Shown piece after piece: positions 9,418-47,774 of a stretch of 64,000 bases of DNA. The stretch lies in NCBI GenBank assembly GCA_044892505.1, contig CM097882.1, forward strand, positions 183,520,001 through 183,584,000, given 5' to 3'. This stretch comes from Schmidtea nova. Taxonomy: Eukaryota. How positions within the stretch are numbered: the stretch's first letter is position 1; each line of letters begins with the position of its first letter. A program made the translations under genes and the position numbers. Below the pieces are notes generated by a model that made no database searches, was not told the DNA's origin, and saw nothing but the letters and a program-made list of their open reading frames with translations.

Positions 9418-10029
9418 TATTAAACATTTAGAAGTTCTGTCAGTATTTGTGATAAGTCATTTCTCTACAAATCAAATTATTGTTTAATTCATTGATGAAA
9501 TTTAGGAATTTTTGGCCGATTTCTGTATTCATAAATTTACACTTGGTTATCTTTATTGCAATAATTCTTTTTAACAACTGCTTAAACCATTTAAAAAGAG
9601 ATAAATTTAATAAATTTTTAAAATTGTCGATTCTTATTTTTTTGATTTTTGCTTGTACGAAATTTTGACATATGTTGGATCCACCATTTGGTCCACATTT
9701 AGCATAAATAATAAGAATAATAAGAAATAAATAAGAATAAATTAAAATTAATATAATTACCAGAAATTTCAGAAAAAAGATGAATTAAAAGTTATAAATT
9801 TATATAAATTTAACAGCAAGAATTAAGAGAAATAGAATTGAAATTATTAAAAGTATTAAGAAAATGATACATAATTATATTTAAATAAAAAAGAAAGTAA
9901 AGCAAATAAGTAGAATTACAAAAAATAATAAAAATCAAAACAGCAAATTGCTAGCAATTGACAACAAAATCAATTGATTTTAGCGTTAATAAAATTTATT
10001 ATTTGTGCTGATCTGATGATCAGCTTCAA

Positions 10030-10178
10030 GCTGATTGGTTCAGCATTTGATCTGGTCAGTATAAATACTGATCCAGATTCAGTTAAAATTCAATGAACAG
10101 TAGATGAAATTTTTTTCAACATTTTGTTGTATGCAAATTTTGTGAAGACAATATTTTTGAAAAACTAAAAGGTATGAG
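10030..10178 (+). promoter_or_regulatory. Putative LTR promoter and major splice donor
   Basis: ATTGG (CCAAT box) ~10034, TATAAATA 10060-10067, Inr-like TCAGTT 10079-10084, donor AAG|GTATGA at 10172. Confidence 0.55.
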
Positions 10179-10292
10179 TATTTTGTTTTTTATTATATTA
10201 TGAATTCTGACATTGCCATTATAGTTATTTAAATGAAATTAATAAAACTTTCTGAATATGTTACATTCTTTTGAATTTAGAATTAAATTAAG

Positions 10293-10581
10293 CTTCTTCC
10301 ACTGTGCAATCAGTGGAAGGAGACGACTTTATCTATTTATTTATCTATCTTTTATTGAGCTTCTTCCATCGTGTAATCGGTGGAAGGAGACAACCTTAGT
10401 GTATTATGCTAACCATTACTTACAAGTATATATTTTTTAGAAGTGAATTTTTGGGTCGAGCTTCTTCCTCTGTGCAATCAGTGGAAGGAGGCGAATATAT
10501 ATTATTTATATACCGTAGTTATAGTAGAAAATTACGTATGATTTAAGGGGCTCCGATCACCGTGCAATCGGTGAAATGGAG
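10293..10581 (+). other. Four stem-loops with conserved TG(C/T)AAT hexaloop (copy at 45601-45889)
   Basis: CTTCCACTG-TGCAAT-CAGTGGAAG (10296-10319); CTTCCATCG-TGTAAT-CGGTGGAAG (10363-10386); CTTCCTCTG-TGCAAT-CAGTGGAAG (10464-10487); TCACCG-TGCAAT-CGGTGA (10557-10574). Confidence 0.7.
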
Positions 10582-11046
10582 GCATACTGTGCCGAGTAGA
10601 ATGACTGCTCCGTACAGTTGGGCCGTCCGACCGGTGTAAAGCGCCGTGAAGAGGGTAGGAATTTTTATTTAACCATGATTTCTAACCTTATTTTTCACTG
10701 GATAGTATAACCAGTTGAAGTTTATTTTATAACCGATTTGATTTTATGAGTTTATAGTTGAGTAAAGTTTGATTTTAGTTTGAGACAGATATAGCTGCGA
10801 TCTTATTAACCTGATTTTACCTTGAGATTCACAGAGCGTTAACCTATATTTTTCGATTGTCACATCTGGGGTTTGTGGGCATAAAGCGGCAGATACACGG
10901 TTAAGAATTTGTACAAAACATATTTTTAACAACATTATCAAAAATCGATAACTTTAATAGCGTAGTGATCTACTACGCAAGTAACATAGCAGCAATAGGC
11001 TATAGGATCAAACATTCCACATAAATAATTAAACATAATTGCTTAT

Positions 11047-11172
11047 CCTGAACCCTGTATATAGGGCAGTAGATCTGAGTTTTATTTAAATAATTTTCTT
11101 ATCCTGACTGCTGTATATAGCACAGGCGTAAATAAATAAATGAAGGTATCTGATCGCTGTACATAGCGACAG
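11047..11172 (+). other. Three stem-loops with GTA(T/C)AT loop, each containing a perfect TGTAHATA word (copy at 46355-46480)
   Basis: CTG-aa-CCCT-GTATAT-AGGG-CAG; CCTG-ac-TGCT-GTATAT-AGCA-CAGG; CTG-a-TCGCT-GTACAT-AGCGA-CAG. Confidence 0.7.
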
Positions 11173-11294
11173 TGTTGAAAATAGGTAAATCATTTTCTCT
11201 TCCTGAATTAACAATTAACAGTCGTCGAAAGAATGAGAATTGTTCAAATCCACACAACCAATTTATGTTAATAAACCATCTTGAATTTTAGAGA

Positions 11295-11885
11295 ATGTCA
11301 GTCAACTCAACCACTAATCAAGCCGAATTGGATAAAGCATGGAGGATAATTCGCAGCCTCGAAAAGGAAATGCTGCGAAAATCAGAAAAGCTAAAGGAAG
11401 CCGATGGAATAATTTCAAACCTGAAGAAAAGCTGGTTCAGTCCAGAACAAATGAAAATACAAATTATAAAAAATCAACGCTCGCAGCGAGCCAACAGCGA
11501 AATACAAATGGAATTAGATGCTACAAAGATGGAGCTGAAAAAATGTTTAAAATCCGTGACAGCTACCTATCTAAATCAAGAGCTCAGACAGCTCATTCGA
11601 CCACTCACCTACCAGCATTGGGCTGAAGAAAAATCGGAATGTTCGAAAGGGACGAACACAGAGGAACCCTCTCAGGTTCAAGTAACAACAGCAGCAATTA
11701 CACCAAAAAGTGTTACGATTTCAGAAGGCAAAAAGAAGAAGAAGAGCAAGATGGGAGCGCGCCAGCGTCGCTGGAAGAAACAAGTTCTTCAGCAATTGGC
11801 ACAACAGTCAACAGAAATTCCGGAAATTGATTTAACTATGAACTTTGCAAATTCCGATGAAGACATTACCAAATATTTCGAATAG
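11295..11885 (+). CDS. LTR-encoded 196-aa protein: coiled coil, basic K/R patch, acidic-hydrophobic tail; function unknown
   Basis: ATG preceded by TTTTAG|AGA; KKKKKSKMGARQRRWKK; identical in both LTRs. Confidence 0.7.
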   Translation: MSVNSTTNQAELDKAWRIIRSLEKEMLRKSEKLKEADGIISNLKKSWFSPEQMKIQIIKNQRSQRANSEIQMELDATKMELKKCLKSVTATYLNQELRQLIRPLTYQHWAEEKSECSKGTNTEEPSQVQVTTAAITPKSVTISEGKKKKKSKMGARQRRWKKQVLQQLAQQSTEIPEIDLTMNFANSDEDITKYFE

Positions 11886-12475
11886 AAAATTTTGTGATTT
11901 GTAAATTTGCTTATTAAATAATTTTTATTTTGTATTTAGTTTATTGTAACGTATATGAGATAAAGTAATTTATTAAAAATTTCAAATGAATTAAACTATA
12001 CATTAGAATTAACAATAGAATTAACATAAATCTAATAAACAATAGAAACATTAAAGAGATAAAATATCGTAATTGATTAAGGATTATTTGTTGATATTGT
12101 AAAGAAGGGGGCTGAAAGAAAAGTTGAGAGTTGAAATATATTGTAAAGAAAGGGGGCTAAAGAAACATTGAGATGAAAGATAATGGATGCGGATAGATTA
12201 AAGTTAAAGCGTAAGTCCTTCTATCGGCAGCGAGACGAACCCGTGAACATAAATGGGGAGTAGTTTTAGCAATAGAGCTCACCTGCCCATCATTGTTCAA
12301 ACACCTTGCACATTTCCAACTCGATTATTACAGGGAAATGATCGAGGGTGCTCGTGTGATATGTAAGCATTTTATGTGAGGTTTTGGATGGAGGAATCCC
12401 TAGAGCGTTTAAAAATAATTGTTAATTCATTTTCTATTTTTGTTTTAACCCAATCCAGAACCGACAGCATAAATT

Positions 12476-12493
12476 TGGGGGCTCAGCCGGGAT
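12476..12493 (+). promoter_or_regulatory. Primer-binding site, tRNA-Pro type
   Basis: TGGGGGCTCAGCCGGGAT matches the canonical tRNA-Pro PBS TGGGGGCTCGTCCGGGAT at 16/18; 9 nt downstream of the LTR. Confidence 0.85.
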
Positions 12494-12865: not shown

Positions 12866-13327
12866 ATGAACGACAAATTAAAAGAAACAGAAGAATTCTT
12901 AAACACGGAAAACAAAACATACGATGAATTATGCGAGAAAATAAGTCGAATAAGAGAATCCGGATTCAGAGAACCCATGACACAAACTGAAGAGACAACA
13001 GAGCTGATAAAAATAATGGAAAGAGTAGACAAAATAGATATAACAACTAGATACAAGTGGTACCGAACGAGATTAGAAAATGCTGATGTAAACATAAAAT
13101 GCAGACAGTTAGAACAACAATTAACTCCAACATACCACAAGTGGACGATACAAGGAACTGAGACAGCTAAGAAATTTAAACTCTGTTACATATGTCGAGA
13201 AAGAGAGAATAAAATCATGTTTTTACCATGTGGACATTTCCGGTTTTGTAGAATCTGTGCAGCCAATTGCGACAAATGCCCGATGTGCAATCTCGAAATA
13301 GACGAAAGAATTATTGTGTATTTATAA
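12866..13327 (+). CDS. 153-aa protein with C-terminal IAP/MDM2-type RING finger (putative E3 ligase)
   Basis: CYICRERENKIMFLPCGHFRFCRICAANCDKCPMCNLEIDERIIVYL-stop; no BIR domain; ATG after TTTAG|CA. Confidence 0.85.
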   Translation: MNDKLKETEEFLNTENKTYDELCEKISRIRESGFREPMTQTEETTELIKIMERVDKIDITTRYKWYRTRLENADVNIKCRQLEQQLTPTYHKWTIQGTETAKKFKLCYICRERENKIMFLPCGHFRFCRICAANCDKCPMCNLEIDERIIVYL

Positions 13328-13370
13328 TAAATAAATTTTGAAATTGAATAATATGATTTGTGATAAAGGA

Positions 13371-13555
13371 TAATGAGAATTAATATGATAATTCATAATG
13401 AGAATTAATATGAGAATTCGTAATGAGAATTAATATGAGAATTCATAATGAGAATTAATATGAGAATTCGTAATAAGAATTAATATGAGAATTCATAATG
13501 AGAATTAATATGATACTTGATAATGAGAATTAACAATGAGAATTTAAAATGAGAG
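13371..13555 (+). repeat. 25-bp tandem array TAATGAGAATTAATATGAGAATTC(A/G), ~6 copies plus decay
   Basis: Read directly from the sequence. Confidence 0.9.
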
Positions 13556-14015
13556 TTGATAATGGCAATGACAGAAATCATGATAACAATTGATATTTAT
13601 AAATAATTTTTGAGCTGCTCACGAGTAGTCCGTTAAGCACCTATTGGGAGGAACCAACTGATCAACTTACCCGAGATGTATAGAAAGGGGCCCATCGCGG
13701 AAATTGGAAAGCTTTTGTGATGTGACTGATCACCACATCTTGCATTAGTAGACCAATGCGATCTTTTTGTATATTTTGGTTGGGGTGAAAGGTAGGAACA
13801 ATCTAATGAGGTTTAAGTGCATGCAGAAAATACAAATAAAAATGAGAGAATAGAACACTGATCAGTGGAAGTCGAAAGAACATTAAGTAAATAGGTAGAA
13901 TGAAAGTTAATGTGATAACTCTCATAAAAATAGAGATAATTCAGCTGAATGATAACTAGCGAAGTGGATAATTGCGGTTAACCGGTTAAAGAGATTAGTT
14001 AAATACCTTGTATAA

Positions 14016-14410
14016 AAAGGTCAAGGGCAAATAAGCCATATTAGTTACTCTGAAAGAAGGGTCAAGGGCAAACAAGCCATATTAGTTACTCTGAAAGAAG
14101 GGTCAAGGGCAAAAAAGCCATATTAGTTACTCTGAAAGAAGGGTCAAGGGCAAATAAGCCATATTAGTTACTCTGAAAGAAGGGTCAAGGGCAAATAAGC
14201 CATATTAGTTACTCTGAAAGAAGGGTCAAGGGCAGACAAGCCATATTAGTTACTCTGAAAGAAGGGTCAAGGGCCAACGAGCCGTATTAGTTAATTACTC
14301 TGAAAGAAGGGTCAAGGGCCAACGAGCCATATTAGTTAATTACTCTGAAAGAAGGGTCAAGGGCCAACGAGCCATATTAGTTAGTTACTCTGAAAGAAGG
14401 GTCAATGGCA
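14016..14410 (+). repeat. 41-45 bp tandem array AAGGGTCAAGGGCAAATAAGCCATATTAGTTACTCTGAAAG, ~9.5 copies
   Basis: Read directly; later copies carry a 4-bp insertion. Confidence 0.95.
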
Positions 14411-14650
14411 ACATAAGAATTTGAACCTATGATTGCAATAGTGATAGCAACACAAGGAATGTGAACCTGTGATTGCAATTGTGGATGGCAACACAAGGAA
14501 TGCGAACCTGTGATTGCGATTATGGATAGCAACATAAGGAATGTGAACCTATGATTGCGATTGTTGATAGCAACGTAAGGAATATGAACCTAGGGTTGCA
14601 TTGTGAATAACAACATAAGGAATATGAACCTAGAGTTGTAGTCGTCGACG
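14409..14650 (+). repeat. ~41-bp tandem array CAACATAAGGAATGTGAACCT(A/G)TGATTGC..., ~6 copies
   Basis: Read directly; abuts the previous array. Confidence 0.9.
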
Positions 14651-15222
14651 AAGTAAGAATAGTGAACACTAGAATTTGAGTAATACGAGTAAAGATGATT
14701 AAGTAAACTAGAGATACAGTATGCATACAAGTAGAAATAAGAATAGGAGAAATTAGAGTTGATTAGTGAGAATAATGAGTAATGACGATATAATGAATAG
14801 TAATGAAAGGATAAAACTGAGTCAGGAGAACTCAGGGGAATTAAAGCGTCTGAGCGACAAATTTATTTGGGAGACCGAGGGAAAAGTAATGAATTTATTT
14901 GATAACGATAGATAATTATTACGACCATATAGATAATTGTTACCAGTGAATAGATAATTTAAATAGACTTAAATAAAGGGGAAACCGGGAATGGGGAAAC
15001 AATGGAAACCCAATAATGAGGAATAAAAGCGCAACGATAACAATGATGTATCGTTGAAGTGACTTTTTAATTTAGATATACGGAACAGAACAAGTCAAAA
15101 CAACCAGCCAATCAATCAGAATACGATAACAGAGAAACAGAAAAATTGATAAATTAAAGAAAAGTAAACCGAGATCAAGAACAGTTAAAAACCAAGAAGT
15201 TAATAATTCACAGAGAAATAAA

Positions 15223-18200
15223 TTGAGACCAAGAGCAGTTAGTGCTACAATTCAAAAAGTTGATAAATCACAGAGAAGTAAATCGAAACAAAGAGCAACC
15301 AGTGTTACAAAGAAAACAAATCCTAAAGGAAGTAAATCAAGAAGAGTAATAGTAGAAAAGTCGAAAATCGAAAACAGCAAATTTCCTAAAACTAACGAAA
15401 GTGAAACAGAAGAAAGTTCAAGTGAAACCTACGATAATTATAATAATACGGAAGCATCAGATAACGAGTCAATAAACACAGAAGAAGTAGAAGCAGAAAT
15501 TGATAATAATTCAAACGAAACGAATAACGAGCATACTAGTGAAACAAGAGGAAACGAGAGTAAAACGACACAAGACAGCGGAATCGAAATGAACGAACAT
15601 AAAGAAGAAATTAAAGATAAATTTACTGGAGAACCATTCAATGGAGATGCCAGCAAGTTAGAAACATTTTTAAAAGAATTTGGTATATTTGTAGAAGTAT
15701 GTAAATGGAAACCAGAAACGATAAGAAGCAGAATTCAGTTATATTTAAAAGACAGTGCGTTAGATTTATATTTAGAAGCTAAAAATTCGGACGATCAACT
15801 CGATAGTTGGGAAAAGATAAAGAATTTTTTCCAGCAAACGTTTGGAATAAATAAAGTATTAAATGAAGCGTTTACAGAATTTTCAATGAGGAAACAAAAA
15901 GTTAATGAATCAAATGCAGTATATGCAAGTGAATTAAAGAAATTGGCTAAATTAGCATTTAATCAAAATAGTCCAATGAGTCCAGAATTAATGGCAGCAA
16001 TTTTTGTGGGGGGATTGAGAAGACCCGATATAAGAGCACAAGTTGGATGCCAAGGTTGTAAAACAATAGATGAAGCGTTGGAAATCGCTAACAGATTTGA
16101 ATTACATATGATCGGAAGTGAAGGAAGAATTTACCTAGCAATGGATACGACACAAAATGAACAAGCAATGAAGATAAACAATCATATCCCGAATTCACAA
16201 CAATTAAACCGACCACCACCTCAAAGGAGAAATGAGGGAAACAAAGTACAAAATTTCGGAAACCAAAATAATTATAATACGCAAGGACAGACAAAGCAAT
16301 ATCAAACCTGTGGAAAGTTAGGACATTGGCAACAAGAATGTTTCGTGAACTTAAATTGTAAAACGTGTGGAAGAAAAGGACATTCGGAAAATAGATGTTA
16401 CCAAAGATCATGTTATAACTGTGGACAACCAGGTCATATGGCAAAGAATTGCCAACAACAAAACAACCAGCAAAGGAATTGGTCGAACAACGGAAATCGA
16501 CAAAATTATGCGAATCAACAGAGTAACGGAAACCGTCAGAATTTTGAAAATCAACAGAGTAATTATAACCAGAATAAAAGTACCACCAAAGAAATACATT
16601 TATTACAAGAAGTTCAGAGATTGACAGAGTTAATAAATAATACACCGAGAGGAAATCAACAAACGAATCAACAACAAATGAATATGATGAGAAAAGTAGA
16701 AAGTGAAAATGAACGACTAAATCGAGAAAGTCAAGCACGACATGCTCAAGAATGGGCAAGAATACAAAGAGAAGACGAACAGAAACGACAGGAAAGAGAA
16801 CGACAACCATTGAGAATTAATATGATGAGAGCAATGAATCAAACAAGAGATAACAAAGAAGATATTGAACCAGAAACAAACCAGATAAACCCAAATCCGG
16901 AAGATGAAGAAAACCAAAAAGAAAAAGTACAAGAAAACGAAGACGTTATTAAACAAAAAAGGATGTTGGTAGTCATGCCAAACGATCATGTATTTCGATT
17001 TGAATATGATGAAAAAGAGGAAGTAGGAGTATTAATTAATAAAGTAAACAAGACGATTCCGGGAATGACGAAACTACCCCGAGAAGCATTTTTACAGACA
17101 GAAGACGAAGCAGCAATAAAATTGAAACCAACCGACATATGGAAAGATTTAGGAGTACCAATGAATAAAATGAAAGTCACAGTTATCCGGGAAATAGAAG
17201 AAAATAACGATGAAGAGAAATCAAAACCAGTAACAAAAGTCAAAAGTAGAGCATTGAAGATATTTGAAGAGAGAATCAAACAGAGAAAAGCAATGGAAAT
17301 AGAAAAACGAAGAGGCCAAATAGATGAATCAGAAAACAATGACAACAAGGAAGAAATACCACCAAAAAATGTACCAGATAAAGTAGAACAGACCGCACAT
17401 ATAAATATGTTAAGAAACTTAACTAGAGAATTTTCAGATGTAGAAAGTGACAGTGATGTCAGTAGTTTAGCAGGAGATATGCTAAAAGAACCAGAAAATG
17501 AAGACAACAAGATAGAAGTAGCGAAGACGCCAGAAAATATACAAATAAAAGAAGATGAAATTCAGAAACTATTAGAAAATGCGTTAGAAGTGATTTATAA
17601 CGAAGAATTTATTGATAAGAAGCGATATCGAAAATTTATAAGAGCAGTATTCCGAATGAACTACAAAGAACGGTTACAAAGTCGTGAAGTAGAGATATTA
17701 TCAGGATACGTCGTCAAACTATTAGATGAACCACTCCACGAATACATAATTTTAATAGAAATAAACGAATGTTCACCAAGAATTTGGATCAAATCTCCAT
17801 GCACGAACGAAATTTATCGATGGGTAGAAGACAGATTGGGAAGTTCATATAAAAACAAATTTATATATTCAGGAAATGAACTTGTAAGACGAGCAACGCA
17901 TTTGGTAGAAACAGGCATATGGCCAGGAGAGATAACAACATTATCAATATGCGACAATAAGAAAGAGGAAAATTTACAAGAAATCGCAAAGGAAGCAAAT
18001 ATGTGTTTTGAGATGAGAATTAAACCTCAGTTAGTAGAAAAGAAAGAAAGAATTCTCAGAGAAAATTTAAATTCACTAATAGAACAAATTATTCAACAAA
18101 TCGGCAAGAATAGAGAAGAATTAACGAAAACTGAATATGAGAAATTAAAACAATGCATCGAAAATATACGAGATACCAGCCATACGAGAGATTCGTCATA

Positions 18201-36392: not shown

Positions 36393-39300
36393 ACATCAAA
36401 TACAGGACCAGTATTAACTACAACCATAGAAATAAATGGAAAAGAAATAGAAGCGATGATAGATACAGGAGCAAACATTTCGGCAATAGATATTAAATGG
36501 ATACCGCAAGAACAGAGACAAGAAGTTGAAAGAACAAATGTTCATGTAATCGCATGTAGTAAAGAGATAGTTGAAGTTGCAGGAAGATGGTGGGTGAAAA
36601 TACGACACCAAAATATAGAAATCGAAACGTATGTAGCAGTAATACCGGCTTTAAGTGTACCATGTATAATCGGAACAGATTTAATGCCAACACTATTCAA
36701 AGAAATAATCATCGATCTTGGAACAATGAGATTAAAGGACAGAACAAGGAAAATAGGTGCCATGGAAGCAAAAATAATGATACCGGAAGAAAGAATCATG
36801 ACGAGATCACAAACCATCAGAATAAATATGCTCAGAGCGGAAGAAATTAACACAACTAGTCAAGTAGACAGTGAGAAAATCGATGTTGACAAAGAAATCG
36901 TACGAAAAGCCAAAGAAATAAACGAAAGATGGGAAATCAGACAAGGAAAAGACGTTTTATGGGATATACGACAAATAATCAGTGATTACGCACGAGGATG
37001 CCCAACCAAACCAATCATAATAGAATTACTAAAGAAAATACCAGAGATACTCGTATTACAAGATACAGGAGGTGCAACTGCACTACACAATGCCATAAGT
37101 TGGGGTAAAACGGAAAAGGTAAAAGAATTCTTGAAAATAGCAAAAGAAACGAATCAAAATCTAGACATTGTAAATCGAGAATTAGAAACGCCAATGATGA
37201 CAGCAACACTAAGCTTAGCAGATAAAAAAATAGTAGATATGCTGATCAACGCAGAATTCAACTGGACAGCTCGAAATAGAAGAGGAAACACAGTTTTAAA
37301 CCATGTAATAATGAGTGAAAATCAAATGATACTAAAACATATAACAACCAACCTCACATGGGAAATCGATGAATTAATCAAAGGAGAAATTATGAAGGAA
37401 GCGATTCGGAAAGGAAACACTAAAACCATATGGAAACTAATACAATGGAAATGGCCGAATAATAAAATATGGGTATTAGATATAAACAAAGAATTTAGCG
37501 AAGGACAGAACGCGCTATTGAGATACTTATTAGAGTTTACGTGCGATCAGAGAACAATGTTAGCACTAATAAATAGAGGAAAAATAAATATTAGTAAAAA
37601 CGAAGAGGAATATAAACTAGAAGTCGAAAAGAAAGCGTTATTCAGGAAAATTTGGGTATGGTGTCAAAAACAACTACGCAAAGACATAAGCTACAAAAAT
37701 CTAAATGATTTCCAAGAAAAGTATAAAACGATAATAAAGGAATACAAGAAGCTAGTGGAGATATTAAACGATCCAGAAAAATTTAATCAAGCGATAAATC
37801 AGAAAGAAGAAGAAAGTAAAAGGATACTCACACCATTGTTCAACGCGAAAATAGATTACCAAGAAAGATTAGATGCAATACAGAAAAAAGCAAAGGAACT
37901 ATTACCAGAATTCAAAGATACAAAATACGCCTTGGAAATACTTGGCGCAATAGTAGAAAAAGTACACGCGTACGCGAAAGGAATATATAATGGAAACGAT
38001 ATAATAATTATAAAAAGAGAAATGCCAGTTGCATTTTTACTAACTAAAGAAAGAATAATGCCGATTCATAGAGCATTGAGAGCAGGAAAAGACAGTAAAG
38101 TAATCGAAATCGCAAGATTAATGCATCAATGTGGATGTGATATGAATATGATAGACGAAAAAGGAGACACCCTCATGGTATACGCAGCAAGAGCAAAAAC
38201 AAAAATCAAAGTATTAGAAGAGTTATATAAAGCAGGTGCAGGATTAATCGGGAAAACGGTCAAAGACAACTCAATATTAGACGTGACATTATTAGGTCCA
38301 AACTGGGAAATGTTGAATTTCATTAAAACGATAACAAACCAAGAAGAGATAGATTATTTAACAGAAACCGTAAAAGGACCAAGCGTATTGACAATGATGC
38401 AAAACATCAAATTGACAGAAGAAGTATTAAACTGGAAAATACCAAATACAAATAAACCAGCATTTAAAGTTAACAAGTTTATGGAGAATAATCGAAATTG
38501 GTGTATCCAAAGCGCACTAATAACTTATATATGGCCCGAAATTGTAGAAATTTTCATGAGAAGAGAAGATCTGAGATTTACAAACAAGCCCAAAGAAACG
38601 GAAAAGGTAGTTAAATGGAAAGAATTGATGAAAACACACCTTCAAAGATGGATAAAAGCCAAGAAAGAAATTATACAGTATCAGTTAGACAACAAAAAGA
38701 TACCCGAAGATATAGAATTCCAAGAATTCGAAGCAAGTAACTTAACATCACTATATTATGCAAAACTAATAGAAACAAGTAATGTCGAGGACGACATTTT
38801 TAACGAGCCAGGGAGAGATAATAATACTGACAATGATGATGACGATGAAGAAAACAAGGACGACGAGAGAAATAAAGACGATGATGATGAAAACAATCAC
38901 GGAAATCCAGATAACCACGAACAAACCAATAAAGAAGACGAGAATCAAGAGAGAAATACAAAGAACCACGAATCCAAAGAACAAAGAGAAGACAACCCTA
39001 AAAACAATCATGAAAAGAAAGGAACAAGTTACAGAAGGAATCCATTATTCAGACCAGAAGTATTAATGTTCGCAATAATCATAACACTTATGGGACAATG
39101 TGAAGCAACGAAACAAGAGATATCAGTAGAAATGGAAGTACCAATACAAAAAGCATCAACACAAATAATGAATTCAAAGGACATTGAACAAGTATGTTGG
39201 GTAAAAGAGAATGAAATTCTCGGAGATAACAACCTATTACGATGTATAATTCCAAACCCCGATCGAAAAACCATAATAATAGACGAAATGGATATGGAAA

Positions 39301-41033
39301 CATGGTACAGAATATGTACAATCAGAAAACCCAAAGACGAAAAATCACACAAAACAGTTACATGCCAAGTATACAAGACACCCAAAGTCCGATACGAGTT
39401 CGCCAATGGAATAGACCTTCCAGGACCAATTTATTTTAAAATAACAAGAGCACCAGCATCTAGAAAAGTCTTACAACAACCAAGAACCAAGACAACAATA
39501 CCAAGTACAAGGAATACAACGGATAAACCAGAAGCAAACGGAGGAAATACAACGGTTAAACCAGAACCAAAAAGACGAATGAAACAAACCACAAGAGTAA
39601 TCTATAACTCCAAGTTGTTATGTATAGCACTTATTATGACAATACTGAAGCGATTAGAAGAAGGAATAGAGATGGATACAATGACATTAATAGACATGGA
39701 AGAGACACAAATGACAAATCAAAAATGTTGGTTTAGAAACGATGAAAAATTAGAATTAAAGGAATCAAGAGAAATTCAGAAACTGGAAGCGAGTAAAACG
39801 AACAAAGTAATCAAGATAATAAAGATAAAAACAGACAGAATTCATAAACTATGTTTATTGGAAAAAGAGAGAAACAAGAAAGGAATAACCAATTGTAAAA
39901 CATTTCAAGCAGGAAAAATAATAACGTTTGCAAGAAAAATGGGAAAAGGAAACAAACAGAATTTCCAGAAATTAACCATAACGTTAGAAATAACGGGAAT
40001 AGAACAAAACGTAAACGGAGTATGCTGGAGAAAATACGAGAAAGAAACGAATAAACCTAAATCATCACAATGTCAAACAATCAGAGGAACAACTGCAGTA
40101 CAAATAAAAAGCTTAGAAAGAAATCAAACTTATGAAATATGCCTAATAAAGGAAAATGATCAAATAACGAAAGAAGATTAAGAATGCAGAATATACAAAA
40201 CACCGAACAGAGTAAAAACCAGTAAAGCAATACGAAAGAATAAAAGACAACAAAAACCGAAGCATACCACTACCGAAAGTCAAACAGAACCAGAGAGGAA
40301 AACCTCAGCAACACTTATACTTTGGAAATTAGATGACAAAACAGTGGAAATATGTTGGACAATGATCAAGAAATACGAAGAAAGACAACCACAACAATGC
40401 GAAAAGATGAATAAAGAAGAGGAGATCAGAATTCAGAACCTACAATTGGACAAACAATACGAAATATGCGCAATAGAAAAGGCAGATAAATTTGGAAACC
40501 AGCAAGAAAAATGTGGAAACTATTATACACCGACAAATACAACGATCAAAGGAAGAATCAAGAAACTGACCTTCGGAGAATTGAAGCAAACAACGAAACA
40601 AATGGAAAACGAGGAAACAATAATAGATTCTTATGCCCAATGGAAACCAGAGAAAGTAATTCAGGAAGTCAAAAGGAAACAACAAGAACGACAACAATTG
40701 GAACTCAAATTGAAAGGACAATATGGACCAATAATCAATCAGAGCAAATTCACCCAAATCAATGTTAACAAGCAAGGAAGAGAACTAATTGGAGTAGGAA
40801 TACTGGCAGTATGCGTACCAATAATAATAATAATATTATCAATAATATGGTTATGGGACATAATAAAAAAGAAACCAACCAGACAATGGCCAGATATAAA
40901 GATCATGAATTGTAAAATCAAAATACCTGAAGAAGTGAAGAAAGAATTCCAAAGAAGAACCAAAGGCAAAGAATTTTGGAAGCAAATAGAAGACGAGGAG
41001 CGACACGATGAAAAAGCAGTGATGATAGTATAG
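36393..41033 (+). CDS. Polyprotein, 3' part: retropepsin, two ankyrin clusters, acidic linker, internal signal peptide, four FN3-like repeats, TM; one in-frame TAA at 40179-40181
   Basis: Joins in frame to 22830 (...IAVM|TSNTG...); MIDTGANISAI...CIIGTDL; GATALHNAISWG, GNTVLNHVI, GDTLMVYAA; frame stays open from 40182 into track ORF 40344-41033. Confidence 0.9.
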
Positions 41034-41154: not shown

Positions 41155-41490
41155 ATGAATGTACGAGAAGAAACAACCGAAATGACTTTGACTATGCGAT
41201 GGAAAGCACAATGTGAAACGTTAGTTCGATCAATTAATGCACTACAGAATCAACTGGTAGAGAAGCAAAATATATTAGCAGATTGTTACAACAATATTTT
41301 CGAACAGTTACATAAAATAGAAGAGCAACAGAGAACAATAACAGAACTAACAAGAGAGAATCAAAGATTGAGACAAACGATGGAAATAAATCAACTAACA
41401 AGAAGAGATGAATCAGAAGGTCAATGGCTAGATTGGGTAATAAATGGATTAGAGAATGGTATAGAACCAGATTCAACGAGCGAACCATAG
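41155..41490 (+). CDS. 111-aa coiled-coil accessory protein
   Basis: Heptad pattern; ATG after TTTTAG|AAA; same A-rich composition as the polyprotein. Confidence 0.7.
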   Translation: MNVREETTEMTLTMRWKAQCETLVRSINALQNQLVEKQNILADCYNNIFEQLHKIEEQQRTITELTRENQRLRQTMEINQLTRRDESEGQWLDWVINGLENGIEPDSTSEP

Positions 41491-41586
41491 TCAAATTGTA
41501 GCGGAAAATTGTATATATGTAAAAATAAAACTCTAGAAAAATCAAAAACAAAGAACAAATCAATGTATGTATATATTATTGTAGAA

Positions 41587-42942
41587 ATGGATAAAGAGGA
41601 ACGAGCAGTCGAGATTTTGAGAGCAGCAAACAGAAATTGGAACAAGAGATTTGTATGTGGATATTGTAATAATTTATTACGGAAACCAAAGCAAACCGCC
41701 TGTGGATGTAGATTATGCACCAGATGTGTACAAATGTTGGAACTAAAGAAAATAACAGAATGTCCAGAATGTAAAGAAGGACAAATAGTATTAGACGAAA
41801 CAAGACCAGATAGAGCAACTCAGAGAGAAATCATGAGCATATTAATTGAATGTATAAATCCACCGTGCATATGGCAAGGACAAATCAGCGAAATTGAAAA
41901 TCATATAGAAAATTGTGAAGAAAAGAGAAGCGAATGTGAAAGGTGTAAAGAAACGATAATTTTAAAAGACAAAGAGAAACACAGAGGTGAATGCAAAGAG
42001 GAAGAAATCGCATGTAAATATTGCGAAATTCGAGAAACAAGGAGAAGAATTGAAGAGGAGCACATCAATATAAAAGAAGAAAAAATATGCGAACAGTATG
42101 TAGGAGTGTGCCCAAACAAATGTGAAATTACCGAAGAAGTGAAATTACGAGAACATTGGGAAAAGTGTACAGAAATACCAAGAGAATGTCCTTACAACAG
42201 ATATGGATGCAAGGAAAAGAAGTCTCAACAAAATATTAAACAACATTTAGAAACAGAAGCAATCAATCATATTGAAATGACAGACAGAACAATTCAGAAA
42301 TTAGAAAAAGAAGTGGAATCTCATAAAATAATGATGAACCTATTATTAGAAACGAGAGAACAGTTTGAATTAACCCGAGGAAAGATGGAAAAGAAAATAA
42401 TAGCCATCAAGGAATTAGCAAAAGGAATGAAAGTACAATATAACAAGTTAATACAAGAAATTGATGAGAAAAAAGATTTACCAATAGCACCTTATGTGTG
42501 GAAAATAACGGATTTCCGAAATAAATTGGAAGATGCACGAAGCTTCAAGAAAACTGCGGTAATAAGCCCACCATTTTACTTATGGAAAAACGGGGCTAAA
42601 GTGAGACTGAAAGTATATCCAAACGGAGATGGGAAAAGTATTGGAAAACACATATCAATATTTTTTGCGTTTTGCAAAGGAGAATATGACGATTTAATCG
42701 ATTGGCCGATAGGAGTAGGAGTAATGATAAAAATCAGGGGTTTAAACGAAACCATAGAAAAGAGATTCACGACAGAAAAAGGAGCAGTTACGAGTAACAG
42801 ACCAACAGAAGAATGTGGATTAGCAAGTGGAGAACCACACTTTGTATTACAAAGCAAGATATGGGGATTATTGTATGAGGACACCTTATACATAGAAATG
42901 GAAAGGAACGAGAAGGCAGATAGAAAAGGATGGTTGGCGTAG
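41587..42942 (+). CDS. Full-length TRAF-like protein (RING, TRAF zinc fingers, coiled coil, MATH)
   Basis: CGYC...ACGCRLCTRC...CPEC; zinc fingers such as CPYNRYGC...HLE; MATH YVWKITDF...SPPFY...LKVYPNGDG...HISIFF...GEYDDLIDWP; likely ATG at 41587 after TGTAG|AA. Confidence 0.93.
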   Translation: MDKEERAVEILRAANRNWNKRFVCGYCNNLLRKPKQTACGCRLCTRCVQMLELKKITECPECKEGQIVLDETRPDRATQREIMSILIECINPPCIWQGQISEIENHIENCEEKRSECERCKETIILKDKEKHRGECKEEEIACKYCEIRETRRRIEEEHINIKEEKICEQYVGVCPNKCEITEEVKLREHWEKCTEIPRECPYNRYGCKEKKSQQNIKQHLETEAINHIEMTDRTIQKLEKEVESHKIMMNLLLETREQFELTRGKMEKKIIAIKELAKGMKVQYNKLIQEIDEKKDLPIAPYVWKITDFRNKLEDARSFKKTAVISPPFYLWKNGAKVRLKVYPNGDGKSIGKHISIFFAFCKGEYDDLIDWPIGVGVMIKIRGLNETIEKRFTTEKGAVTSNRPTEECGLASGEPHFVLQSKIWGLLYEDTLYIEMERNEKADRKGWLA

Positions 42943-43047: not shown

Positions 43048-44151
43048 ATGGGAAACGTCGAAATCAGTTTACAAGAAGTTACCGCACATCAAGATGAAGT
43101 TATTTGTGAGCATTTAGAACAAATTGAAAGTTGGATCCACGCATATTACCACAAACAAAAAGAAGTAGAAAGACAAGCCGAACAAATAAAAGAAGCCAAA
43201 AGATTAAAGCGATTAAGTCAAGATAAAATAGATGAACTATATGAATTATTAGAAAAACAAAAAGAATATTATAAAAAGATGATGAAAGAACGACGAGAAG
43301 AAAGAGAGCGAGAACGAACAGAAATGGAACGGAAAATGTACTCCATTACCGAGCAAGCAAGATATTGGAAAAAAGAAGCGAAAGAATCGTATACGAAAGC
43401 AAGAGAAATAATCGAAAGAACGGCGTACCGCGATGATTGGAAGTTATTTGAAGAAATCGATAAATTAAAAGAGGAATTAGAACAGAAAACCTATCAGGAA
43501 ATATCGAGCAAAAAATTGAATAAAAAGAGACAACAATTCATCAGAGAGCAAGCAGGAAAAATTAAACAACTTATGCACCAGATTGAAAGGTCGGAAAGAG
43601 AATTATATTTCAGTAAACAACAATCAGATGCAAACCTCAGAGCAGGGATGCAGAAAGAGGAAGATATGAAGCGCGATATTAATGGTTATCAAGGAGTAAT
43701 CACTCAAAAGAAGATAGAATTAAAGAAAGCGAAAGAAAGATTAGAAGAAGCAAAGCAAAGCTATGAAGAAAATTTATTAAAATTAGAAGAAGCAAAACAA
43801 AGCTATGAGGAAAATTTATTAAATTTAACCAAAGAAAATGAAGAGTTGAAACAAAAACTGATACAAAAATTAACACCACCAAAAGAGACAGATATCACCA
43901 AAGCAGTAATAAAAATGATGGAAGAGGAAGAGAAAATCAAAAAAATAACAGAATTAGAAAAACAGATCGAAGCATTAACAGAACAATCAAATTATTTAGA
44001 ATATCTGTTAGACGAAGAAATTCAATTATCACACTTCTATCGAGACGAAGTAACAATGTGGAGAAACACGATAGTGTGGTTACCACTCCCTACGAATCAA
44101 GTGGAACCTCAAGATGAAGGTTTTCACGAACCAAATGAGTCGTTAGTTTAA
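43048..44151 (+). CDS. 367-aa long coiled-coil protein
   Basis: E/K/Q-rich heptads with an in-frame 14-aa duplication LEEAKQSYEENLL(K); ATG after TATAG|AAA. Confidence 0.8.
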   Translation: MGNVEISLQEVTAHQDEVICEHLEQIESWIHAYYHKQKEVERQAEQIKEAKRLKRLSQDKIDELYELLEKQKEYYKKMMKERREERERERTEMERKMYSITEQARYWKKEAKESYTKAREIIERTAYRDDWKLFEEIDKLKEELEQKTYQEISSKKLNKKRQQFIREQAGKIKQLMHQIERSERELYFSKQQSDANLRAGMQKEEDMKRDINGYQGVITQKKIELKKAKERLEEAKQSYEENLLKLEEAKQSYEENLLNLTKENEELKQKLIQKLTPPKETDITKAVIKMMEEEEKIKKITELEKQIEALTEQSNYLEYLLDEEIQLSHFYRDEVTMWRNTIVWLPLPTNQVEPQDEGFHEPNESLV

Positions 44152-44224
44152 AGAAGCGAAAAATTCGTTGTAAATATCTGTAAAATAACAATGACAAACT
44201 GTATTGACAAATTTGTAAAGTGAA

Positions 44225-44788
44225 ATGAAGAAACTCGCAATACTGATAATCGTAAACGTAATCGAGATCACCCAACAAAGAGAAGACCGTCCGATATCAA
44301 AAGAAAATCTACAAGTCTTACCCGATAAAATCTATAAAGAAATAGATAATCTATTAAAAGAAACAGTCAGAGAAATCTCTCAAATTCAATTGTCAACAGC
44401 ACGTAACCCAGTATCAACGCAACAAACCCTGTGCAAAATCAATAACAAATTAGAGAAGATTCGAAAAACCCTAAAAGAAAGTAAAGAAACTATAAAGAGT
44501 TTACATCGAGCAGAAATTCAATACCAAGAAAGATGGATCGTTGCGATTATAATCGTGTTAACAATTAGTACAACAACCTGCGCAATTACCATTCTCATCG
44601 CAGTATATAGAATAAAGATCCTAAAACAAAAACAATCAATCATCAACCAAACAACAGCACATGATGACAATGCCCGAAGACAAATGAGAAATCAGCTCAA
44701 CAGAATACGAACCCAATACGAATTACCAGCAATTCCACAGAACCAGTCCAATCCAGTGCGAGTTATGAACTATTTATATAAACTATAA
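44225..44788 (+). CDS. 187-aa putative type I membrane protein (signal peptide, helical ectodomain, TM)
   Basis: MKKLAILIIVNVI...; TM WIVAIIIVLTISTTTCAITILIAVY followed by a basic stop-transfer segment. Confidence 0.75.
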   Translation: MKKLAILIIVNVIEITQQREDRPISKENLQVLPDKIYKEIDNLLKETVREISQIQLSTARNPVSTQQTLCKINNKLEKIRKTLKESKETIKSLHRAEIQYQERWIVAIIIVLTISTTTCAITILIAVYRIKILKQKQSIINQTTAHDDNARRQMRNQLNRIRTQYELPAIPQNQSNPVRVMNYLYKL

Positions 44789-44945
44789 TTACTTAACGAA
44801 ATATTTGATTAACAATTATCTGAATTTTCTTTATATTTTCTTTGTGATTACGTATATACTAAACTCACCTTATGTGAATCTTTATACATATGTATCAAAA
44901 GTAGAAATTTTTATGAATGTTGAATATAAGTAATATTGTATAATT

Positions 44946-44980
44946 AATTGCGGGACGCAATTTTAGGGGTCCGCTAGTGA
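44946..44980 (+). promoter_or_regulatory. Atypical PPT region: hairpin AATTGCG-GGA-CGCAATT then TTAGGGGTCCGCTAGTGA abutting the 3' LTR
   Basis: Lies directly before TGTTGG at 44981; only a short purine run. Confidence 0.5.
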
Positions 44981-47774
44981 TGTTGGATCCACCATTTGGT
45001 CCACATTTAGCATAAATAATAAGAATAATAAGAAATAAATAAGAATAAATTAAAATTAATATAATTACCAGAAATTTCAGAAAAAAGATGAATTAAAAGT
45101 TATAAATTTATATAAATTTAACAGCAAGAATTAAGAGAAATAGAATTGAAATTATTAAAAGTATTAAGAAAATGATACATAATTATATTTAAATAAAAAA
45201 GAAAGTAAAGCAAATAAGTAGAATTACAAAAAATAATAAAAATCAAAACAGCAAATTGCTAGCAATTGACAACAAAATCAATTGATTTTAGCGTTAATAA
45301 AATTTATTATTTGTGCTGATCTGATGATCAGCTTCAAGCTGATTGGTTCAGCATTTGATCTGGTCAGTATAAATACTGATCCAGATTCAGTTAAAATTCA
45401 ATGAACAGTAGATGAAATTTTTTTCAACATTTTGTTGTATGCAAATTTTGTGAAGACAATATTTTTGAAAAACTAAAAGGTATGAGTATTTTGTTTTTTA
45501 TTATATTATGAATTCTGACATTGCCATTATAGTTATTTAAATGAAAATAATAAAACTTTCTGAATATGTTACATTCTTTTGAATTTAGAATTAAATTAAG
45601 CTTCTTCCACTGTGCAATCAGTGGAAGGAGACGACTTTATCTATTTATTTATCTATCTTTTATTGAGCTTCTTCCATCGTGTAATCGGTGGAAGGAGACA
45701 ACCTTAGTGTATTATGCTAACCATTACTTACAAGTATATATTTTTTAGAAGTGAATTTTTGGGTCGAGCTTCTTCCTCTGTGCAATCAGTGGAAGGAGGC
45801 GAATATATATTATTTATATACCGTAGTTATAGTAGAAAATTACGTATGATTTAAGGGGCTCCGATCACCGTGCAATCGGTGAAATGGAGGCATACTGTGC
45901 CGAGTAGAATGACTGCTCCGTACAGTTGGGCCGTCCGACCGGTGTAAAGCGCCGTGAAGAGGGTAGGAATTTTTATTTAACCATGATTTCTAACCTTATT
46001 TTTCACTGGATAGTATAACCAGTTGAAGTTTATTTTATAACCGATTTGATTTTATGAGTTTATAGTTGAGTAAAGTTTGATTTTAGTTTGAGACAGATAT
46101 AGCTGCGATCTTATTAACCTGATTTTACCTTGAGATTCACAGAGCGTTAACCTATATTTTTCGATTGTCACATCTGGGGTTTGTGGGCATAAAGCGGCAG
46201 ATACACGGTTAAGAATTTGTACAAAACATATTTTTAACAACATTATCAAAAATCGATAACTTTAATAGCGTAGTGATCTACTACGCAAGTAACATAGCAG
46301 CAATAGGCTATAGGATCAAACATTCCACATAAATAATTAAACATAATTGCTTATCCTGAACCCTGTATATAGGGCAGTAGATCTGAGTTTTATTTAAATA
46401 ATTTTCTTATCCTGACTGCTGTATATAGCACAGGCGTAAATAAATAAATGAAGGTATCTGATCGCTGTACATAGCGACAGTGTTGAAAATAGGTAAATCA
46501 TTTTCTCTTCCTGAATTAACAATTAACAGTCGTCGAAAGAATGAGAATTGTTCAAATCCACACAACCAATTTATGTTAATAAACCATCTTGAATTTTAGA
46601 GAATGTCAGTCAACTCAACCACTAATCAAGCCGAATTGGATAAAGCATGGAGGATAATTCGCAGCCTCGAAAAGGAAATGCTGCGAAAATCAGAAAAGCT
46701 AAAGGAAGCCGATGGAATAATTTCAAACCTGAAGAAAAGCTGGTTCAGTCCAGAACAAATGAAAATACAAATTATAAAAAATCAACGCTCGCAGCGAGCC
46801 AACAGCGAAATACAAATGGAATTAGATGCTACAAAGATGGAGCTGAAAAAATGTTTAAAATCCGTGACAGCTACCTATCTAAATCAAGAGCTCAGACAGC
46901 TCATTCGACCACTCACCTACCAGCATTGGGCTGAAGAAAAATCGGAATGTTCGAAAGGGACGAACACAGAGGAACCCTCTCAGGTTCAAGTAACAACAGC
47001 AGCAATTACACCAAAAAGTGTTACGATTTCAGAAGGCAAAAAGAAGAAGAAGAGCAAGATGGGAGCGCGCCAGCGTCGCTGGAAGAAACAAGTTCTTCAG
47101 CAATTGGCACAACAGTCAACAGAAATTCCGGAAATTGATTTAACTATGAACTTTGCAAATTCCGATGAAGACATTACCAAATATTTCGAATAGAAAATTT
47201 TGTGATTTGTAAATTTGCTTATTAAATAATTTTTATTTTGTATTTAGTTTATTGTAACGTATATGAGATAAAGTAATTTATTAAAAATTTCAAATGAATT
47301 AAACTATACATTAGAATTAACAATAGAATTAACATAAATCTAATAAACAATAGAAACATTAAAGAGATAAAATATCGTAATTGATTAAGGATTATTTGTT
47401 GATATTGTAAAGAAGGGGGCTGAAAGAAAAGTTGAGAGTTGAAATATATTGTAAAGAAAGGGGGCTAAAGAAACATTGAGATGAAAGATAATGGATGCGG
47501 ATAGATTAAAGTTAAAGCGTAAGTCCTTCTATCGGCAGCGAGACGAACCCGTGAACATAAATGGGGAGTAGTTTTAGCAATAGAGCTCACCTGCCCATCA
47601 TTGTTCAAACACCTTGCACATTTCCAACTCGATTATTACAGGGAAATGATCGAGGGTGCTCGTGTGATATGTAAGCATTTTATGTGAGGTTTTGGATGGA
47701 GGAATCCCTAGAGCGTTTAAAAATAATTGTTAATTCATTTTCTATTTTTGTTTTAACCCAATCCAGAACCGACA
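44981..47774 (+). repeat. 3' LTR (2794 bp)
   Basis: Direct repeat of 9673-12466, followed by TSD CATA. Confidence 0.97.
46603..47193 (+). CDS. Second copy of the LTR-encoded 196-aa protein
   Basis: Translation identical to 11295-11885. Confidence 0.7.
   Translation: MSVNSTTNQAELDKAWRIIRSLEKEMLRKSEKLKEADGIISNLKKSWFSPEQMKIQIIKNQRSQRANSEIQMELDATKMELKKCLKSVTATYLNQELRQLIRPLTYQHWAEEKSECSKGTNTEEPSQVQVTTAAITPKSVTISEGKKKKKSKMGARQRRWKKQVLQQLAQQSTEIPEIDLTMNFANSDEDITKYFE

Follow-up and report, generated by a model that had tools for sequence, protein, structure and literature searches.

A giant Burro-like retroelement without pol in Schmidtea nova belongs to a recombining family of in-frame deletion forms

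Non-autonomous LTR elements are usually regarded as decaying or non-coding parasites, and the LARD and TRIM groups are characterized by an internal region without coding capacity. Among larger elements, Burro (GYPSM1) refers to giant Ty3/gypsy elements of dugesiid planarians, whose published layout combines Gag, Env and protease in one giant polyprotein and includes ankyrin and TRAF modules (PMC6431247). Mixed populations are described for cattle ERVK[2-1-LTR], in which a non-coding D-type makes up 85% of copies, recombines with competent elements and dominates new insertions; ETn/MusD, IAP/I-delta-1 and KoRV/RecKoRV are cited there as comparable competent/defective pairs (PMC10924933). Additionally, plants harbor TR-GAG elements, which are non-autonomous, shorter than 4 kb and carry Gag as the sole ORF (PMC4350172), and engineered split-genome (semi-replication-competent) retroviral vectors use a pol genome and an Env genome that complement each other (PMC9813426).

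The element reported here lies in a 64,000-nucleotide window of the Schmidtea nova genome, whose coordinates are used throughout, with all LTR, signal, module and ORF features on the plus strand. It is bounded by a 5′ LTR (9673–12466) and a 3′ LTR (44981–47774), both 2,794 bp long with TG...CA ends and a single mismatch between them, and is flanked by the target-site duplication CATA at 9669–9672 and 47775–47778. The primer-binding site at 12476–12493, 9 nt past the LTR end, is complementary to the 3′ end of host tRNA-Pro(TGG), and a short purine run at 44965–44969, 11 nt upstream of the 3′ LTR, is the putative polypurine tract. These features agree with the near-identical LTRs, intact duplication and primer site listed in a first-pass annotation. 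A 13,556-bp Polinton/Maverick-like palindrome, foreign to the retroelement, is nested at 22831–36386, with 6.4-kb arms that are 99.8% identical and each carry an interrupted protein-primed DNA polymerase B, and with a 6-bp target duplication, GTCATG, at 22825–22830 and 36387–36392. Subtracting this insert and one target copy leaves a native element of 24,540 bp, in which ORFs occupy 16.2 of the 19.0 kb of internal sequence, less than the almost complete coverage initially claimed. The window copy is broken twice, by the nested insert and by a private stop at 40179–40181 missing from 10 of 10 sister stretches compared, and was inactivated after its insertion.

The Gag-Env and protease-ankyrin regions are one polyprotein split by the nested insert, as they are contiguous and in a single frame in sister copies, 15 of which show a frame of 4,108–4,140 codons. 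The domain order is zf-CCHC, Monjiviricetes_fusion and RVP. The first part (15130–22830) contains Gag, with CCHC knuckles (zf-CCHC, Pfam) and a first ATG at 15589, followed by an env-side module of 5,385 nt (17370–22755) that is present in the window copy and removed by in-frame deletion in 24 sister copies. This module comprises ubiquitin-like and BCL2-like regions and Env (20446–22347; Pfam Monjiviricetes_fusion, E 6e-71), the latter with a signal-like hydrophobic stretch (20446) and a transmembrane segment (22186). The BCL2-like and ubiquitin-like assignments are weak leads: all 37 of 37 PDB hits for the former were Bcl-xL with a best E of only 0.47, clusters for the latter scored 0.79–0.82, and a fold model had a pLDDT of 45 and no match. 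Downstream of the insert, a retropepsin protease (36390–36765; RVP, E 8e-9) is followed by the last part of the polyprotein (36800–41033), with ankyrin repeats, a transmembrane segment at 40773 and, as a lead scoring 0.87, fibronectin-III-like repeats.

Outside the polyprotein, each LTR carries a 196-aa ORF (11295–11885, second copy 46603–47193) with no confident family and a pN/pS of 0.15 across 19 LTRs. A RING-finger ORF (12866–13327; zf-C3HC4_3, E 9e-12; pN/pS 0.15) precedes leader tandem repeats at 13370–14632, whose 25-bp and 41-bp units differ in number among copies. Four accessory ORFs follow the polyprotein: a coiled-coil-like ORF of 111 aa (41155–41490; pN/pS 0.18), a TRAF-like ORF (41563–42942; zf-TRAF, MATH E 7e-21; pN/pS 0.17), a 367-aa ORF with no family match (43048–44151; pN/pS 0.10) and a 187-aa ORF with one transmembrane segment (44225–44788; pN/pS 0.27).

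The initial observation of Gag, Env and protease together with no RT, RNase H or integrase was upheld. None of the 12 ORFs scanned matched the Pfam families of these three enzymes. With the pol block of a sister copy (1,008 aa) as query, tblastn found no match in the window and phmmer gave at best an E of 1.7 against 725 six-frame segments of 9673–47774, the same search giving E 0 with a related family as positive control; no divergent RT or integrase was thus detected inside the element. As noted in the first-pass annotation, the protease reads directly into the ankyrin region, and the in-frame join at 36766–36778 marks a deletion junction, J2, at which 3,039 nt encoding the dUTPase-like, RT, RNase H and integrase stretch have been lost. 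A sister about 96% identical in DNA retains RVT_1, RT_RNaseH, Integrase_H2C2 and rve, so the window copy, which lacks the gypsy-order pol seen in that sister, is a deletion form and not an autonomous member.

The family to which it belongs, F1, comprises 80 young copies in four in-frame architectures classed by junction. The window type, with Env and without pol, is the commonest (50 copies), alongside 13 copies lacking both, 11 with pol and without Env, and six complete copies. In total, 63 of 80 (79%) are pol-less, which excludes a single-copy deletion, 74 are missing at least one of pol and Env, and Env is absent from 11 of the 17 that carry pol. Uninterrupted class-length frames were found in 15 of 50 Env-bearing pol-less, 5–6 of 13 doubly deleted, 6 of 11 Env-less pol-bearing and 2 of 6 complete copies. 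LTR pairs diverged by 0–1.15% in 33 of 33 tested copies, with class medians of 0.03–0.07% and values of 0–0.07% in the three complete copies dated, and a 4-bp target duplication was present in 24 of 28 scorable copies. Five pol-less copies at separate loci are 99.6–99.96% identical over 4.9 kb across the junction, indicating that pol-less genomes are copied as such. The F1 polyprotein reads Gag, then the module of ubiquitin-like, BCL2-like and Env regions, then protease, then the module of dUTPase-like, RT, RNase H and integrase regions, then the ankyrin, FN3 and transmembrane part. Both modules are detachable in frame, and all four combinations are multi-copy, recently inserted and part of one gene pool.

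The anatomy of the window element is that of known planarian Burro elements, as judged from their published layout (PMC6431247). Shared features are Gag and mononegavirus-type Env regions in frame before the protease, with the weakly assigned ubiquitin-like and BCL2-like regions as candidate further matches, the dUTPase-like stretch, RT, RNase H and integrase of F1 pol-bearing sisters, and the ankyrin repeats, TRAF/MATH ORF, RING and tandem repeats (PMC6431247). The complete F1 form reaches 28.2 kb and the window form 24.5 kb, against a Burro length criterion of about 30 kb or above, and the 5,140-codon frames of a sister family have the size given for one Burro-like ORF of planarians, a match in length only (PMC6431247). 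However, the parts of that account used here describe only complete or decayed elements, whereas 74 of 80 F1 copies are in-frame deletion forms; they also note a BIR domain in S. mediterranea elements, which had no Pfam match among the 12 window ORFs scanned, and F1 differs in having its TRAF ORF downstream instead of upstream and in carrying an ORF within the LTR as well as an FN3-like membrane module (PMC6431247).

All multi-copy deletions are multiples of three (J1 3,021 nt, J2 3,039 nt, J3 2,973 nt, env 5,385 or 5,388 nt), and the three pol deletions all preserve the motif preceding the ankyrin module. J2 is found in 9 copies and J1, which leaves 18 nt more sequence in place, in 53; J2 may derive from J1, and pol loss at the same module boundary seems to have occurred on three or more occasions, one of them in another family. 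This protease-cleavage-like motif, chosen by eye and marking putative cleavage sites, occurs five times in 15589–22839 against 0.33 in shuffles, with 0 of 500 shuffles reaching five.

Pol-less and pol-bearing copies are interleaved in LTR, env and ankyrin trees. Fst between classes reaches 0.18–0.22 only in the 90-nt bin adjoining each junction and is elsewhere at most 0.07 in size, and past about 100 nt from each junction the classes are indistinguishable (Fst ~0). An env-deletion haplotype marked by three linked private bases is carried by 2 pol-bearing and 5 J1 copies, and another by 3 pol-bearing, 2 J1 and 1 J2 copies; such shared junction haplotypes on varied backgrounds point to co-packaging and template switching. 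LTRs of copies differ from the window LTR by 6–17% and yet match inside each copy, so the mosaic predates insertion. The suggested lineage of pol-less elements holds in that the copies are many, young and under purifying selection, but they do not form a clade of their own. Similarly, pol-bearing partners sharing the LTR family and primer site with the window type exist, although the Env-less partner is not the "pol-only" element proposed, retaining Gag, protease, ankyrin and accessory ORFs. Given its complete young copies, F1 is bipartite-like but not an obligately bipartite system.

Judged by pN/pS values of 0.05–0.27, all ORFs are under purifying selection. Among pol-less copies, pN/pS was 0.07–0.11 for env, 0.05 for the protease, 0.14 for ankyrin, 0.10 for gag and 0.10–0.27 for accessory ORFs, and shared variants were more constrained than singletons (0.01–0.17 vs 0.32–0.44). 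As all classes recombine freely, these low values could be partly inherited from selection on pol-bearing copies.

We consider it probable that F1 is a trans-complemented, recombining swarm in which the pol-less majority still supplies particle proteins. Deletions would arise when RT slips between short template repeats adjoining protease-cleavage-like motifs, leaving a shortened polyprotein that would still be processed. Pol-less RNA would be packaged in cells co-expressing a pol-bearing copy, usually Env-less, and be reverse-transcribed and integrated in trans, while RNAs of different classes could pair in one particle and RT switching reshuffle the modules across the ~480-nt protease island. 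Pol-less copies would still produce Gag, Env, protease and host-modulating proteins themselves, which may favor their own packaging and would supply most of the family's Env. Pol could also come from outside F1, as dozens of complete sister-family copies share the primer site and encode an RT with 96–97% protein identity.

An unlikely alternative is that pol-less genomes are pure defective passengers copied in trans, with their own proteins irrelevant and ORF constraint borrowed by recombination. The near-zero Fst permits such an inherited signal, frames are broken in 35 of 50 Env-bearing pol-less copies, and precedent exists in defective ERV morphs outcompeting helpers in cattle ERVK[2-1-LTR] (PMC10924933). 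Against this, every multi-copy deletion is in frame and ends at the same module edge, although RNA stability alone could suffice to retain in-frame junctions. Moreover, variants common to pol-less copies and absent from sampled pol-bearing copies show an omega of 0.07–0.15, with only 4–6 pol-bearing copies in the polarising set; drift should show in pol-less copies that form 79% of the pool, and a second family repeats the pattern (env pN/pS 0.07 among 5 pol-less copies). Even less probable is an obligate or nascent bipartite retrovirus, with the Env-bearing pol-less and Env-less pol-bearing forms as co-infecting segments and the other classes as protease-island crossovers. Complementary halves do exceed, and complete and doubly deleted copies fall below, random combination (complete, 6 against 11.9 expected; Fisher p 0.0009, ~0.001, counting copies as independent; 0.002 after collapsing one burst; 0.03 when restricted to intact copies), and where frames are intact, Env is missing from 6 of 8 pol sources and pol from 15 of 17 Env sources. 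Complete copies are also not a lineage, since the nearest env block is that of a pol-less copy in 5 of 5 scorable cases and one is identical to an Env-less copy across both pol windows. However, complete young copies exist with 2 of 6 frames uninterrupted, their shortfall could be leftover linkage over 480 nt, and sister families with complete frames of 5,085–5,685 aa replicate, which argues that size does not force a split. Family F4 likewise has six pol-less copies beside only two copies with both env and pol, and no Env-less partner was found in it.

That Pol comes mainly from the large complete sister families F2, F3 and F5 is highly improbable. In its favor are their dozens of intact copies with that RT identity and primer site, and the pol-less F4 form, in which an F4-type protease adjoins an F5-type ankyrin module, suggests particle sharing between families; nevertheless, F1 and F2 LTRs are alike only in the last 200 bp, at 75%, F1 pol-bearing and pol-less copies constantly exchange sequence, and F2, represented by one copy, falls outside all F1 copies in both blocks treed. 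Finally, post-insertion deletion by gene conversion between genomic copies, or assembly artefact, is largely refuted. The genome is repeat-rich and the junctions lie in short repeats usable by DNA repair, but J1 with its linked private bases is common to 53 copies, every copy has its own flanks and a matching LTR pair, and the J2 and J3 joins recur in contigs of one and two, respectively, of three separate sequencing runs, which are of unrecorded kind, from a single study and may include the source sample.

Compared with cattle ERVK[2-1-LTR], the trans-complemented swarm favored here shares a defective majority (85% there, 79% in F1), inferred trans-complementation, and four-gamete recombination between classes with linkage only beside the class boundary (PMC10924933). 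In contrast to the D-type elements as described there, which have no intact ORFs and a swapped central segment, F1 pol-less copies retain, under purifying selection, accessory ORFs and a polyprotein of 4,100 aa, and most F1 helpers are Env-deleted (PMC10924933). TR-GAG elements are likewise young LTR elements without RT or integrase that retain a particle gene (PMC4350172); the window element is excluded from that group by its 24.5 kb, its Gag-Env-protease-ankyrin content and several host-interaction genes, and it recombines with helpers. LARD/TRIM membership is ruled out by 16.2 of 19.0 kb of coding sequence and the low pN/pS. Split vectors also pair two complementary defective genomes, of which one provides pol and the other Env, but they are man-made with an Env half lacking Gag, whereas both F1 halves keep Gag and protease and coexist with complete and doubly deleted recombinants (PMC9813426).

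The pol-less form is thus the majority in F1; it retains ~16 kb of coding sequence under constraint and shares its recombining pool with a reciprocal Env-less form, and the family offers a natural setting for asking how defective-interfering genomes become cooperating segments. RT-based annotation would overlook 63 of its 80 copies, and class-specific junctions provide simple markers for RNA, cDNA and particle assays. The strong Env constraint lends support to the proposed view of Burro elements as true proviruses, and F1 bears on whether, in an animal with adult stem cells, Env is kept for spread between cells. More tentatively, and as a possibility to which we give only minor weight, these patterns may reflect a natural invertebrate ERV that is segmenting into Gag-Env-protease and Gag-protease-Pol genomes spread by complementation and co-infection, with complete genomes mostly protease-island recombinants and module-precise pol loss repeated across Burro families, in one case through template switching between families. 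If true, split genomes would be a repeated outcome of polyprotein gigantism.

The element under study occupies window positions 9673-47774 and is bounded by two LTRs of 2,794 bp each, which differ at one position, start with TG and end with CA, with CATA on both flanks. An 18-nt primer site located 9 bases past the 5' LTR is complementary to the host tRNA-Pro(TGG), so the near-identical LTRs, CATA duplication and primer site reported in the first-pass annotation stand. Without its nested insert, the element is 24,540 bp long. Among 12 ORFs scanned, Pfam recognized no pol family; it did recognize CCHC knuckles, a retropepsin, ankyrin, RING and TRAF/MATH domains, and a Monjiviricetes fusion glycoprotein (E 6e-71). 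A search with the pol block from a sister copy likewise found no match in any frame of the window element (best E by phmmer 1.7, against 0 for the control). Together these searches rule out a hidden divergent reverse transcriptase (RT) or integrase and uphold the earlier description of Gag, Env and protease without RT, RNase H or integrase. The Gag-Env and protease-ankyrin parts represent a single polyprotein split by the insert, because in sister copies a single frame runs through both; the window copy is additionally interrupted by a stop codon of its own at 40179-40181. Its Gag (16357-16460) contains two strict CCHC knuckles versus three in most sister copies. The C-terminal part of the polyprotein (39100-41033) is a probable membrane protein, and fibronectin-III-like repeats were flagged there (atlas score 0.87), which we treat as a lead only. 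The BCL2-like and ubiquitin-like identities of polyprotein parts are weak, and folding the BCL2-like region from its single sequence gave an uninformative model.

A protein search of the genome using the protease-ankyrin region returned 59 contiguous matches with 92-100% identity and a smaller set with the two parts ~3 kb apart. Junction patterns placed a 3,021-nt pol deletion (J1) in 53 copies and the 3,039-nt deletion of the window copy (J2), whose joined form is 18 nt shorter than J1, in nine copies including the window's, while the undeleted pol side gave 28 matches. A second deletion, corresponding to window 17370-22755, removes 5,385 nt with the ubiquitin-like, BCL2-like and Env regions (23 pattern matches and one copy identified by alignment); the intact Env end gave 57 matches at no more than one mismatch. 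Pairing by coordinates yielded 80 copies, comprising 50 with the env-side module and no pol block (env+pol-, the class of the window copy), 13 env-pol-, 11 env-pol+ and 6 complete, with uninterrupted frames of class length in 15, 5-6, 6 and 2 of them, respectively. Left out of this set are six examined older copies with a third junction (J3), one further old protease-ankyrin match, three older, unexamined matches and one sister-family match to the undeleted side, and sister-family Env-end matches at two mismatches. Because the genome searches score best candidates only, all copy counts are lower bounds; 63 of the 80 copies (50 with env, 13 without) are pol-less, which answers the earlier question of whether such elements are multi-copy.

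LTR pairs diverged by 0-1.15% in all 33 tested copies (20 env+pol-, 5 env-pol-, 5 env-pol+ and 3 complete; three alignments partial, below 2 kb), with medians of 0.03-0.07%. When both registers of the LTR right end were allowed, a 4-bp target duplication was present in 24 of 28 scorable copies, with four unmatched and 5 of the 33 unscorable. Five pol-less copies share 99.6-99.96% identity over 4.9 kb across the junction. The young LTR pairs, target duplications and near-identical pol-less copies indicate that pol-less genomes were reverse-transcribed and integrated as such, and hence that Pol was needed in trans. Judged by these sequence features, all four classes are recently mobile.

The first-pass annotation envisaged a separate clade of pol-less copies, which is rejected, as pol-bearing copies are interspersed in the LTR, Env and ankyrin trees (5 state changes among 6 pol+ rows in the ankyrin tree, 4 among 4 in the Env tree). 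Since many forks of these FastTree trees are open, the argument is carried by Fst and junction haplotypes. For 67 of the 80 copies, class Fst reached 0.22 in the 90-nt bin next to the pol junction and 0.18 in the one next to the env junction, and stayed within 0.08 of zero in every other bin. An env-deletion haplotype marked by three linked private bases is shared by 5 J1 copies and 2 pol+ copies; a second one is found on 3 pol+, 2 J1 and 1 J2 copies. Identity to the window's LTR ranges over 83-94% from copy to copy, yet the two LTRs within each copy match, indicating that the mosaic formed no later than reverse transcription. Co-packaging of cattle ERVK has been inferred by the same four-gamete reasoning (PMC10924933).

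Pairwise pN/pS among pol-less copies was 0.073 for the 3' part of Env (37 copies), 0.052 for protease (50) and 0.141 for ankyrin (48). Values were 0.11 for the 5' part of Env (32 copies), 0.10 for Gag and 0.10-0.27 for accessory ORFs (5-7 copies each); the LTR ORF was sampled in 19 copies. By variant type, pN/pS was 0.32-0.44 for singletons and 0.01-0.17 for shared variants. The first-pass annotation asked for dN/dS below 1 in pol-less copies, and these pN/pS values (0.052-0.27) are well below it, but because the classes recombine this purifying signal cannot be credited solely to pol-less genomes. Selection is indicated more directly by the multi-copy deletions (3,021, 3,039, 2,973, 5,385 and 5,388 nt), all of which are in frame and end at module edges. 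Out-of-frame deletions are single cases only (394 nt in copy L176; single-contig joints). Pol deletions retain, ahead of the ankyrin module, a motif that reappears at borders between domains; it is present five times in 15589-22839, a number reached in 0 of 500 shuffles, although for two of the four proteins tested enrichment fell short of significance. This motif presumably resembles gypsy protease cleavage sites and is read as a putative protease site. Splicing as the source of the deletions was rejected, as the J2 and J3 joints listed do not have GT..AG ends and the crossover of J1 falls within an imperfect repeat of 17 nt. Contigs of three other runs (kind unrecorded, one study) contained the J2 join in one run and the J3 join in two; the J1 join was absent from the joints listed.

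Loss of pol has recurred. J3 is a separate, older in-frame deletion of 2,973 nt common to the six examined copies (L066-L068, L178-L180), whose identity to the young family is 85-94%. A second family, F4 (~52% protein identity; L064, L065, L161-L173, L194-L196, L201) has six pol-less versus two pol-bearing copies, the latter excluding a family without a pol-bearing parent. Its LTR alignments were 99.3-99.9% identical in four of five tested and its pN/pS 0.07-0.18. The pol-less F4 form combines an F4-type protease with an ankyrin side typical of a sister family, F5, and so looks like a cross-family chimera; the ankyrin side of one F4 parent does not match that of the pol-less form. An F5 copy (L202, G000:C3:42946700-42947600) has lost RT, RNase H and the integrase core through a further, separate in-frame deletion, retaining the dUTPase-like stretch and the integrase tail. 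Genome-wide, at least three large complete Burro-like families have frames near 5,085, 5,140 and 5,650-5,685 codons. Compared with the window element's family (F1), RT is 96-97% identical in two sister families, with Env at 82%, ankyrin at ~62% and LTRs nearly unrelated.

These observations most likely reflect a trans-complemented swarm in which pol-less members still contribute their own proteins. That pol-less copies are pure passengers, replicated in trans and contributing nothing, is unlikely. A truly segmented state, the bipartite option of the first-pass annotation, is somewhat less likely again. In its favor, the complementary halves (env+pol- and env-pol+) are over-represented among the 80 copies and complete copies are short, with 6 versus 11.9 expected (p 0.0009; 0.002 with one burst collapsed). 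Moreover, intact Pol frames come mostly from env-less copies (6 of 8) and intact Env frames from pol-less copies (15 of 17), and complete copies form no lineage of their own. However, young complete copies exist, F4 shows no env-less partner, sister families flourish complete, and leftover linkage across the 480 nt between the env-side module and the pol block could yield an identical deficit. Help from the Pol of other families is improbable, and deletions that arose after insertion or as artefacts are hardly credible.

Two registers occur at the right end of the F1 LTR (L101-L158 and window 12467-12475): it lies 9 nt from the primer site in 10 copies and the window, and 6 nt from it in 14 copies. 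The left end is 11 nt off the purine run. This spacing suggests unusually long and variable integrase end processing. Host tRNA-Pro(TGG) genes form a 308-bp tandem array (L159, G000:C1:459608206-459611227), and a 22-nt tRNA-Pro(TGG) pattern has 899 genome matches.

The nested insert is a 13,556-bp Polinton/Maverick-like palindrome (window 22831-36386) with its own 6-bp target duplication and AG...CT ends. The palindrome is near-perfect, a 365-bp spacer separating two 6.4-kb arms that share 99.8% identity. The only protein encoded is DNA polymerase B, which is interrupted in both arms by an identical in-frame stop and in the right arm by a frameshift as well. Such a structure is reminiscent of a snap-back defective genome that nevertheless integrated. 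Two further F1 copies (L016-L018, L055) also have insertions, with DNA that resembles the region of the nested polymerase B at 68%. Window 1-896 contains a 46-bp tandem array and flank that resemble the ends of the nested insert at 70-81% and probably represent a related terminal fragment. An uninterrupted hAT-type transposase ORF of 634 aa (Dimer_Tnp_hAT) is present at 50252-52156 on the minus strand, and a 106-aa fragment at 54510-54830 on the plus strand presumably resembles the end of a piggyBac-type transposase.

In Burro of dugesiid planarians, as described in section 7 of PMC6431247, a single very large ORF comprises Gag, motifs resembling ubiquitin and BCL2, a mononegavirus-like Env placed in frame ahead of protease, a dUTPase-like stretch, RT, RNase H, integrase and ankyrin, as well as TRAF. 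Judged by this anatomy, the host is probably a planarian of that kind. The pol-bearing sisters of the window element (28.2 kb) have the same module order, a likeness of layout and not of a sequence tree, and the giant Env-bearing layout is, by this comparison, already known from Burro; the fibronectin-III-like end is unmentioned in that section. The available part of PMC11410931 names Burro once, with its structure not given. Our literature search, by titles and abstract openings, identified no pol-less or env-less Burro forms, although the original Burro paper and its supplements, outside the search, may show them. Protein databases gave no matches for protease-ankyrin (longer proteins) or Env (near lengths), a result uninformative on distribution. 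A recombining defective majority with helpers (PMC10924933), Gag-only elements (PMC4350172) and engineered split genomes (PMC9813426) are already known. In comparison, what appears to be new is that a single recombining family naturally contains a two-by-two array of deletion forms, in frame and fully coding.
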